Origin: a virus
Lineage: Duplodnaviria; Heunggongvirae; Uroviricota; Caudoviricetes
Virus record (IMG/VR): IMGVR_UViG_2526164604_000013
Coordinates: 1 to 4,741 of that record
Reading direction: 5' to 3' (one strand)
Length of the DNA stretch: 4,741 nucleotides
Shown: positions 1 to 3,000 of the stretch, piece by piece
Position numbering within the stretch: the stretch's first letter is position 1
Layout: each line of letters starts with the position of its first letter
Made by a program: the position numbers

Positions 1-3000
1 TTTCTGGTTTTACGTGCGCAGCGTCAACCTGGTGGGGAAATCTGCGTTTGTGGAAGTCAGCGGGCAGCCCAGCAATGATGGTGAAGGGTATCTGGAATTT
101 TTCCGGGAAAAAATAGGAAAACTGCATCTGGCTCAGGGGCTATGGGAGCTGATAGACAACAGCCAGCTTGCGGATGAGATGGCGGAGATGAAGACCACCA
201 TCACGGAAACCCGCAATGAAATCACACAGACGGTCAACAAAACGCTGGAGAACCAGAGCGCCACTATACAGCAGATACAGCGCGTGCAGAAGGACACAAA
301 TGATGACCTGGCTGCGCTGTACATGCTGAAGGTTCAAAAACGAAAGACGGCATTCCCTATGTGGCCGGGATTGGTGCAGGGATTGAGGATACTGATGGCC
401 AGCCACTGAGCAACATACTGCTGCTGGCTGACCGTATCGCGATGATAAATCCGGAGAGCGGCAACAGCACGCCGTTATTTGTGGCGCAGGGGAATCAGCT
501 GTTCATGAACGACGTGTTCCTGAAGCGACTGTTTGCGGTGAGTATCACCTCGTCCGGCAATCCCCCGACGTTTTCCCTGACGCCGGACGGGCGACTGACG
601 GCGAAAAATGCGGATATCAGTGGCAGTGTGAATGCGAACTCAGGGACGCTCAACAACGTCACGATTAATGAGAACTGTCAGATTAAGGGGAAACTGTCAG
701 CCAACCAGATTGAAGGCGATATTGTCAAAACGGTCAGCAAGTCTTTCCCCCGCACGAGCACTTATGCCAGTGGCACCATCACGGTAAGAATCAGTGATGA
801 TCAGAAGTTTGACCGGCAGGTCATGATACCGCCAGTGTTATTCCGCGGTGGTAAGCATGAGAATTTCAACAGTAATAACCAACAGTCATACTGGTATTCA
901 ACCTGCCGGTTAAGAGTGACCCGCAATGGTCAGGAGATTTTTAATCAGTCCACAACGGATGCTCAGGGCGTATTTTCCTCAGTTATAGATATGCCTGCCG
1001 GACAGGGGACGCTGACACTGACATTCACCGTATCTTCATCAGGAGCGAATAACTGGACACCAACAACCAGTATCAGCGATCTGCTGGTTGTGGTGATGAA
1101 AAAATCCACAGCAGGTATCAGTATCAGCTGAATTTTATAACCCATATACGGGCGCCAGAAATGGCGCCTTTTTATTGCAGAAAAGCGAGAGGTAATTATG
1201 CGTAAACTTTATGCCGCCATTTTGTCCGCAGCCATCTGTCTGGCCGTATCCGGCGCGCCTGCATGGGCGTCTGAGCAGCAGGCCACGCTGAGCGCGGGGT
1301 ATCTTCATGCCCGGACGAGCGCTCCCGGTAGCGATAATCTTAACGGGATTAACGTGAAATACCGTTATGAATTTACGGACACGCTGGGGCTGGTGACGTC
1401 ATTCAGCTATGCAGGAGACAAGAATCGCCAGCTTACCCGTTACAGCGATACCCGCTGGCATGAAGATTCCGTGCGTAACCGCTGGTTCAGCGTAATGGCG
1501 GGGCCGTCTGTGCGCGTGAATGAATGGTTCAGCGCGTATGCGATGGCGGGTGTGGCTTACAGCCGTGTGTCGACTTTCTCCGGGGATTATCTTCGCGTAA
1601 CTGACAACAAGGGGAAAACGCACGATGTGCTGACCGGAAGTGATGACGGTCGCCACAGCAACACGTCTCTGGCTGGGGGGCTGGCGTGCAGTTTAACCCG
1701 ACCGAATCCGTGGCCATTGATATTGCTTATGAAGGCTCCGGCAGTGGCGACTGGCGCACTGACGGTTTCATCGTGGGTGTCGGTTATAAGTTCTGATTAG
1801 CCAGGTAACACAGTGTTATGACAGCCCGCCGGTTCAGGCGGGCTTTTTTGTGGGGTGAATATGGCAGTAAAGATTTCAGGTGTACTGAAAGACGGCACAG
1901 GAAAACCGGTAGAGAACTGCACCATTCAACTGAAAGCCAGACGTAACAGCGCCACGGTGGTGGTGAACACGGTGGCCTCTGAAAATCCGGATGAAGCCGG
2001 TCGTTACAGCATGGACGTTGAGTACGGTCAGTACAGCGTTATTCTGTTGGTGGAAGGGTTCCCGCCGTCACATGCCGGGACCATCACCGTGTATGAAGAT
2101 TCTCAACCGGGGACGCTGAATGATTTTCTCGGTGCCATGTCGGAGGATGACGTCCGGCCGGAGGCACTGCGCCGTTTTGAACTGATGGTGGAAGAAGCGG
2201 CGCGTCACGCTGAGGAGGCGAAGAAGAATGCCGGAGAGGCGGAGACGTCCGCGAGGAATGCCGGCATATCAGCCAGTCAGGCAGAAGAGAGCGCGGCAAA
2301 TGCTGACACTTCAGCAGGGGATGCATCGGAGTCAGCCCGGCAGGCGGCAGAAAGTGCAGCCGCTGCAAAGCAGTCAGAGGAGGCGTCCTCGTCCTCGGCC
2401 TCTGCGGCCGCTCAAAAAGCCAGTGGGTCATTACAAAGTGCAACAGATGCTGAGTTGTCAAAAAAGACGGCAGAAAGTGCAGCCGGTAATGCAGCCAGGG
2501 ATGCAACGACCGCAGCAGAAAAAGCCCGGGAGTCAGCAGAAAGCGCACAGTCAGCGGAACAAAGCAGGATAGCGGCGGAAGAAGCCGTAAACAGAATCCC
2601 CACCGTGGTGGGACCTCCCGGGCCAAAGGGGGAACAGGGGCCCGCTGGCCCTCAGGGGCCGAAGGGTGATAAGGGAGAGCGCGGTGACACCGGCCCTGTC
2701 GGGGCAACCGGCGAACGGGGACCGGCAGGTGATGCTGGTCCGGCAGGCCCGCAGGGGCCGAAAGGTGACAGGGGAGAGCGGGGAGAGACCGGTCTGACGG
2801 GAAATGCAGGTCCACAGGGTCCAAAGGGAGACACCGGGGCAGCAGGCCCGGCAGGCCCACAGGGACCGAAAGGAGAAACAGGTGCGGCTGGCCCGGTGGG
2901 GGCAACCGGACCTCAGGGGCCGGGAAACATTATTGAGACAAACAGCATGGCTGGTTCCCGGATACAGATGGTGCGCTCATCACCGGACTGACCTTTCTTG

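Follow-up and report, generated by a model that had tools for sequence, protein, structure and literature searches.

The stretch of DNA considered here (hereafter the window) comprises 4,741 nucleotides (nt) of virus record IMGVR_UViG_2526164604_000013 and corresponds in full to contig AKMA01000013.1 (4,741 bp) from draft assembly GCA_000267185.1. It carries, in this order, gpJ, lom, a side tail fibre gene, a separate open reading frame (ORF) for a PfC domain, and two nleG genes (Table 1). The whole window matches chromosomal prophages of Escherichia coli O157:H7 with 99.4-99.7% identity and the same gene order. Its most conspicuous feature is a collagen-like Gly-X-Y tract inside the fibre gene (2611-2925). 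With high confidence, this tract is the collagen domain (Col) of an EPclA-type side tail fibre encoded by a lambdoid prophage of enterohaemorrhagic E. coli (EHEC); this assignment takes in the fibre mechanism, the rare deletion allele and the probable sequencing errors presented below. The collagen tract and the fibre architecture are already known, as the family was biochemically characterised in 2012 (Ghosh et al., 2012, PLoS One 7:e37872).

The collagen-like tract and the gene encoding it

Translation of 2611-2925 on the + strand, in the frame of the ORF starting at 1861, yields 105 residues with Gly at every third position, i.e. 35 in-register Gly-X-Y triplets without interruption, preceded by ...AVNRIPTVV and followed by NIIETNS... 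The sequence-only reading of the window had described precisely this tract, and both its coordinates and its count are exact on re-translation. In the other five frames of the window, the longest Gly-X-Y run amounts to 3 triplets, and the probability of 35 in-register triplets arising by chance is about 1e-40 (at an assumed typical protein Gly content of about 7.4%). The Pfam profile PF01391 (Collagen) matches the tract with an E-value of 8e-17, and its G+C content is 71% vs 51% for the window. The X positions of the 35 triplets are occupied by P (18), E (6), D (5), and A (4), the Y positions by A (8), T (7), K (6), Q (6), R (4), and P (1). The triplet counts (GPK 5, GPQ 5, GPA 4, GER 3, GET 2) agree with the frequencies published for the EPclA family (GPK 15%, GPQ 12%, GPA 12%, GER 8%, GET 8%; Ghosh et al., 2012) and indicate the same preferences. 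A separate observation concerns the fibre gene of strain M7638 (2364-3677), where the fourth Gly of the tract is replaced by Glu, breaking the triple-helix repeat; this is a G-to-A change at the position equivalent to 2639 of the window.

The fibre ORF starts with the ATG at 1861 (the ORF listing begins at a GTG at 1855) and, as written, stops at 2989-2991. Its residues 1-133 are covered by PF08400 (prophage tail fibre N-terminal; E 6e-69, 230 bits), and residues 1-93 match the collar domain of the Ur-lambda side fibre (PDB 9E7M, 'Tail fiber protein'; E 4e-52). The protein begins with MAVKISG, and the virion-borne 9E7M chain is aligned from residue 1. These two matches and the position of the gene after gpJ and lom uphold the earlier identification as a tail fibre. 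The 116 residues that follow are rich in Ala (37), Ser (22), and Glu (14), contain only 8 Leu, Val, and Ile residues taken together, and are a predicted coiled coil, the PCoil of EPclA type. Within this region, the window has G at 2426 where three relatives have A, changing Glu to Gly (KASGSLQ vs KASESLQ). The C-terminal PfC domain is missing from the ORF as written, and its match to PF06820 (prophage tail fibre C-terminus) is regained from two shifted frames by repairing two 1-nt deletions. At the nucleotide level, the gene is 97-98% identical to fibre genes of many long-tailed phages converting for Shiga toxin (Stx) 1 or 2, e.g. 97.6% to that of VT1-Sakai, and it is present in 375 phage records, most of them from Stx-converting phages.

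EPclA proteins (e.g. ECs2717, ECs2941, and Z2340) have 437 amino acids (aa) with a PCoil of 116 aa and a Col of 111 aa, and occur in several copies per EHEC genome with >90% identity (Ghosh et al., 2012). The fibre of the window shares with them the succession of PfN (PF08400), 116-aa PCoil, a single Col, and, once two 1-nt deletions are repaired, PfC (PF06820), the preferences at the X and Y positions, the recurring GP(Q/P)-GPK-G(D/E) motif, and the location in a lambdoid prophage after gpJ and lom. It differs in that its Col is 105 aa long (35 triplets), a value absent from the published lengths of 63, 78, 81, 111, 114, and 144 aa (strain Sakai has a 111-aa and an 81-aa copy; Ghosh et al., 2012). 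Moreover, this Col arose by a deletion running into PfC and not between internal repeats, and the deposited ORF is frameshifted twice.

Collagen-like proteins are also found on the surface of Gram-positive pathogens, and the PDB matches include BclA and a hyaluronoglucosaminidase (6x3m), with E-values of 4e-8 and 1e-5. Scl1/Scl2 of Streptococcus pyogenes and BclA of Bacillus anthracis resemble the fibre in possessing Gly-X-Y triple helices without hydroxyproline, variable repeat numbers, and an adjacent globular trimerisation domain that nucleates folding. In contrast, they are cell-surface or exosporium proteins with other flanking domains; their Pro content at X is much lower, and their Thr/Gln content at Y higher. 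It is extremely improbable that the tract is part of such a surface protein, i.e. of a bacterial collagen-like adhesin or virulence factor, and not of a virion component, even with lom and two nleG genes as adjoining virulence cargo: the N-terminus is an Stf collar domain with the direct MAVKISG start found in virion-borne 9E7M, the gene occupies the tail-fibre slot, and the related EPclB sits at the tail ends of Sp5 virions, as seen by immuno-electron microscopy.

Table 1. Positions of genes, domains, and overlapping reading frames in the window
Feature	Position	Strand	Basis or remark
gpJ, 3' end (tail tip/central fibre)	1..1131	+	PF09327, PF12421; frame broken near 335 (A5 vs A6)
lom (Ail/Lom outer-membrane protein)	1198..1800	+	PF06316; frameshift near 1673
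PfN domain of the side tail fibre, collar domain by homology to lambda Stf	1861..2262	+	PF08400, PDB 9E7M
Antisense ORF, 273 aa (P 19%, L 19%, R 10%)	2084..2905	-	No Pfam match, unannotated in relatives
Alternate-frame ORF over PCoil, 114 aa (Q 19%, R 18%, P 13%), judged spurious	2228..2572	+	Outside the collagen tract
PCoil region	2263..2610	+	116 residues; length and composition match EPclA PCoil
Col, collagen triple-helix domain	2611..2925	+	35 Gly-X-Y triplets, PF01391; triple helix experimental for a paralogue only
Antisense ORF, 60 aa (P 33%), judged spurious	2652..2834	-	Composition, no Pfam match
Alternate-frame ORF, 65 aa (R 18%, Q 12%), judged spurious	2804..3001	+	Composition, no Pfam match
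GGGGCCG, remaining copy of the 7-nt direct repeat at the deletion junction	2916..2922	+	Alignment
Rest of the PfC trimerisation domain, split over three frames	2926..3127	+	PF06820; 1-nt deletions at about 2945/2946 and 3028
89-aa ORF, second, diverged PfC domain	3129..3398	+	PF06820, E 5e-36; annotated in relatives
Two tandem NleG type III effector genes	3512-4087 and 4160-4741		PF06416; second gene cut by contig end

Among the neighbouring genes, gpJ is annotated as such in the closest genomes, and the match of PF06316 to lom (E 1e-91) covers profile positions 1-161 of 199 only. The 89-aa PfC ORF starts one base past the fibre stop and is 34% identical to the fibre's own PfC; a Pfam search gave no Tfa-family match for it. 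Its equivalent in phage Sp5, ORF68, was suggested to be a reservoir for tip variation (Mondal, 2016). The nleG genes have a G+C content of 40-42% vs 50-58% in the phage genes and look like typical moron cargo. By identity only, 20 further matches of the window reach 99.4%, equal to that of M7638. Terminator-like hairpins with T tails were flagged by a scan after gpJ (1150-1169) and lom (1823-1844), and a similar hairpin is visible by eye after the PfC ORF at about 3407-3432 (AAAAACCGGAGTCCGGCTCCGGTTTTTTGTT); the number of hits in the terminator-hairpin scan did not exceed that in shuffled sequence.

Repeats, length alleles and the 45-nt deletion

The sequence-only reading had ascribed the tract to internally repetitive DNA, which overstates a weak property. 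Repeats are present in degenerate form: the sole tandem array, detected with Tandem Repeats Finder, consists of two 45-nt units with 80% identity (2806-2896), and the copies reported by repeat finders measure 45-56 nt with 60-82% identity. The longest exact direct repeat in the tract spans 12 nt (CCTCAGGGGCCG, at 2650 and 2911). Repeated 8-12-mers show no excess over synonymous-codon shuffles of the same peptide (P 0.19-0.61), and in shuffles of the unit order only the 8-mer count is nominally high (P 0.04). The description as highly repetitive DNA was rejected on these grounds, i.e. only degenerate repeats and no significant excess over shuffles. The repeats that matter are short.

The same reading had dismissed Pro/Arg-rich ORFs on the opposite strand and in alternate frames as spurious products of the repeats. 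Four such overlapping ORFs of 60-273 aa, enriched in Pro, Leu, Arg, Gln, or Ser, were inspected; they are unannotated in relatives and gave no Pfam match at an E-value of 0.1. A comparison of four copies of the fibre gene revealed 35 substitutions, 25 of which affect the third codon position in the + frame; for the collagen tract, the corresponding number is 11 of 13. Since substitutions follow the + frame and Pfam matches are lacking, these ORFs were rejected as genes, which agrees with the earlier dismissal. Two details of it did not hold: the 273-aa ORF is Pro/Leu-rich and not Pro/Arg-rich, and it lies mostly over the coiled-coil region (PCoil) and not over the collagen tract. The overlapping ORFs are by-products of a G+C-rich, stop-poor coding sequence.

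Triplet numbers among homologues, and the deletions behind them, were determined on the best 120 database homologues listed. They carry between 3 and 38 triplets, the commonest counts in homologues of the PfC type being 19, 37, 15, and 8, so the variation in repeat number expected by the sequence-only reading is found and the number is anything but invariant. Each shorter Col was then compared with the canonical tract of 37 triplets, asking for one contiguous in-frame deletion as the sole difference. Most of the shorter alleles fit such a single deletion with 0-3 mismatches, and most junctions fall inside a motif present at both deletion ends, e.g. GPQGPKGD or TGAAGP, with about 6-12 shared residues. 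Junctions in repeated motifs are the signature of deletion between internal repeats, which supports the recombination that had been proposed. The sequences are compatible with replication slippage as well as with unequal homologous exchange as the route.

The 35-triplet allele of the window has another origin, one that the sequence-only reading missed, along with two truncating frameshifts and the prior publication. Aligned with its nearest relatives (the ydfJ-side copy of the finished E. coli O157:H7 strain F6667, and M7638), the window lacks 45 nt after 2915. In these closest relatives, 37 triplets end with GPK-GDP-GET and are followed by QIRFRL-GPG-NIIE; the deletion removed KGDPGETQIRFRLGP, which encodes the last three triplets and the start of PfC. 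By this loss of 45 nt, bounded by two copies of the heptamer GGGGCCG, the 37 triplets were reduced to 34 and fused to a clipped PfC, so that the product reads as 35. The 35th triplet, GPG (2917-2925), does read as Gly-X-Y, as had been counted, but owes its existence to the fusion, and its third residue stems from PfC. In contrast to the usual length variants, only Gly-Pro (7 nt) is shared at this junction, which exits the collagen tract. From PfC, the first five profile positions (QIRFR) are lost, as is the Leu of an RLGP motif that has been retained even by the downstream PfC copy with its 34% identity. The alignment of PF06820 to the deletion allele accordingly begins at model position 6 and not at 1, with a decrease in score from 122.6 to 106.1 bits.

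The distribution of the junction was examined with a 45-nt probe that has <28 nt on either side, so that neither flank alone matches. Megablast probes of 90 nt and 64 nt had been discarded as uninformative, as both flanks were joined and reported as one '100% covered' place. Out of 5,426 complete E. coli genomes, the 45-nt probe found the junction in one, namely twice in that of strain F6667; among the viral contigs of IMG/VR, an exact search with 32 nt across the junction yielded none. In the dacD-side prophage of F6667, the junction resides in an intact annotated gene of 422 aa with the same 35 triplets (WP_171878252.1). The 35-triplet allele is real but rare.

Mosaicism, single-nucleotide deletions and the state of the contig

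At sites where the two F6667 copies disagree, the window agrees with the one on the ydfJ side; the exceptions are three short patches of dacD-side sequence, located at 2646-2649, 2915-3012 (including the deletion), and 3134. This segment occurs in EHEC genomes with a median copy number of 9, and the window has matches at 13 places in F6667. Such a mosaic would be the expected product of short-patch gene conversion among co-resident fibre genes, judging from the aligned copies, and would also fit the recombination between fibre genes that the earlier reading had anticipated. A draft consensus of collapsed repeats would give the same mosaic. It is possible, yet rather unlikely, that the 35-triplet allele on this backbone is an assembly chimera, i.e. 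the collapsed consensus of some 9-13 near-identical prophage copies; in this case, the gpJ-lom-nleG context shown would not be that of the deletion, which would come from another prophage. Apart from the number of copies and the patches themselves, this explanation can draw on the window being a short whole contig that starts and ends inside repeated prophage genes. Besides gene conversion between co-resident paralogues, which yields the same pattern, it has to contend with the deletion allele being the minority (2 places) in F6667, the only finished genome having it; a simple majority consensus should not carry the deletion.

The window has five 1-nt deletions relative to all close relatives, at 335, 1168, 1673, 2945/2946, and 3028, and no insertions; the frames of gpJ, lom, and (twice) the fibre gene are broken by them. 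Four of the five lie in runs of 5-6 identical bases, namely in gpJ (A5 vs A6), the gpJ-lom spacer (T5 vs T6), lom (G6 vs G7), and the fibre gene (T6 vs T7). Only 7 substitutions distinguish the window from the nearest genome. Run-biased deletions in this number, along with few substitutions and a short draft contig as source, point to sequencing error. The fibre stop at 2991 results from the missing bases at about 2945/2946 and 3028 (the T run); hopping between frames restores a 27-residue stretch and FFQHLQVRFGDGPWQDVKGLDEVGSDTGRTGE*, with the true stop being TGA at 3125-3127. Most probably, the 1-nt deletions are sequencing errors and the real gene is an intact fibre of 422 aa as in F6667.

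Regarding the same runs elsewhere, lom is intact with G7 in strain M7638. Finished relatives also contain genes annotated as 'frameshifted', i.e. lom in F6667, where the G run is three G longer than in the window, and gpJ in M7638. As the same runs are disrupted in finished relatives, these runs are unstable or error-prone in other assemblies, too.

Such annotations lend something to the alternative that the fibre gene is a genuine, decaying pseudogene, producing either a truncated PfN-PCoil-Col protein without the PfC nucleus or nothing at all. The ORF as read indeed stops at 2991, gpJ and lom of the window are broken as well, and EPclA* copies with loss of frame between domains exist in the finished genomes of Sakai and EDL933. 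This alternative is nevertheless judged improbable, as the closest relatives have an intact gene of 437 or 422 aa and as the pattern of the lesions (1-nt deletions only, four of them in runs, with 7 substitutions in 4.7 kb) occurs on a 4.7-kb contig of a draft assembly. An intact gene obscured by sequencing errors thus remains the preferred explanation.

The T run of the fibre gene deserves separate consideration. It is situated about 100 nt before the fibre stop, with T6 at 3023-3028 in the window vs T7. With T6, the fibre frame continues into the 89-aa PfC ORF (...RVQGFFSICRSGLVTGRGRMLRGWMKWAVIQAEQENDMNILKK...) and is open over 2946-3398. Two database proteins of 494 aa (P0020 and P0027) carry the same fusion of fibre and PfC ORF, which could reflect either a recurrent sequencing error or a real slippage-prone site. 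It is very unlikely that the T7 run acts as a real switch, with the loss of one T giving a different distal PfC knob and, together with short-patch exchange, varying the fibre tips; under this proposal, the fused frame may be bridged by the peptide ...RVQGFFSICRSGLV.... Programmed frameshifting at the T run was considered and kept only as part of this improbable case: no more than about 33 codons of the alternate frame are open ahead of the downstream ATG, and an open stretch of this length has a chance probability of about 0.2 by our own estimate, (61/64)^33. For the Sp5 equivalent, no frameshift signal was found (Mondal, 2016).

Fibre assembly, related systems and implications

The structural background stems from EPclA cloned from strain Sakai. 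The recombinant protein was studied by circular dichroism (CD), analytical ultracentrifugation (AUC), size-exclusion chromatography with multi-angle laser light scattering (SEC-MALLS), and electron microscopy (EM), and forms trimers with a collagen CD signal and cooperative melting at 42 C. Its PCoil constitutes a trimeric coiled coil of its own, with a melting temperature near 50-52 C, and its PfC serves for trimerisation and for renewed nucleation of the triple helix. In EM, the molecule appears as a dumbbell with a hinged stalk. The collagen rise is given as 2.88 A per residue, and Col lengths differ by multiples of three (Ghosh et al., 2012). With >90% identity among copies, this trimer, CD, and EM evidence sustains the proposal of the sequence-only reading that the tract forms a triple-helical shaft; for the copy in the window, the trimer and the collagen triple helix are predicted by transfer on sequence identity.

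On this basis, three chains would form one side tail fibre. Their PfN domains, judging from the homology to lambda Stf, probably become part of a collar that surrounds the tail directly above its tip, and the 116-aa PCoil is expected to form a trimeric coiled coil that makes up the hinged stalk together with the collagen helix. The Gly-X-Y tract would account for a triple helix of about 30 nm (105 residues at 2.88 A), and PfC presumably trimerises, nucleates the helix, and forms the distal knob. As the comparison of homologues shows, stalk length evolves through in-frame deletions between repeated peptide/DNA motifs, putatively by slippage or by unequal recombination.

Two phage systems invite comparison. 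In cryo-EM of Ur-lambda, twelve copies of the collar domain ring the tail, and four trimeric side fibres project from it and speed adsorption. The lambda (Ur-lambda) Stf fibre (PDB 9E7M) resembles the present one in its homologous collar domain, and each of the two is a trimeric side fibre whose gene follows J and lom. They differ in their shafts: that of lambda Stf is built from long coiled coils and a gp37-like distal domain without a collagen tract, and it binds OmpC, whereas the distal domain of EPclA is a small PfC knob. Only the N-terminal domain is shared with the Stf family, the C-terminus being a PfC and the downstream gene a PfC-only ORF. EPclB (Z1483/ECs1228) is the tail fibre of the short-tailed Stx2 phages 933W and Sp5; it is essential, and immuno-EM of Sp5 virions placed it at their tail ends (Mondal, 2016). 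Like the fibre of the window, it has PfN, PCoil, PfC, and collagen domains and is followed by an 89-aa PfC-only ORF; unlike it, EPclB comprises 645 aa with two Col domains (157 and 114 aa) split by a Pf2 repeat, and belongs to a podovirus-type tail.

Some points weigh against the assignment as a whole. By analogy, the structural steps are carried from the Sakai paralogue, for which they were demonstrated, to this copy, and the docking site on the tail is likewise taken over from lambda to these phages. The clipped PfC could be impaired in folding or helix nucleation, judging from the residues that are lost. The EPclA* copies with frame loss in Sakai and EDL933, mentioned above, count in the same direction.

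What is unusual in the window is limited to the rare deletion allele that clips PfC and to the poor quality of the contig. The latter carries a warning: short draft contigs from genomes with multiple prophages contain homopolymer errors and possibly a chimeric consensus, and the ends of their ORFs should not be taken literally. The length of the stalk and the nature of the tip probably have an effect on the range of strains infected, a relation already appreciated in the literature to which the window adds nothing. If the T-run switch were true, EHEC prophages would have a built-in way to vary their fibre tips, with about 9 co-resident fibre genes. The phages bearing these fibres are lambdoid and transfer genes for Shiga toxin and type III effectors from one E. 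coli strain to another. For this fibre family, the analysis makes a small addition, in that the listed homologues directly show most length alleles to be single deletions between repeated motifs, and the deletion that clips the PfC nucleation domain would serve as a natural experiment on the portion of PfC that is required.

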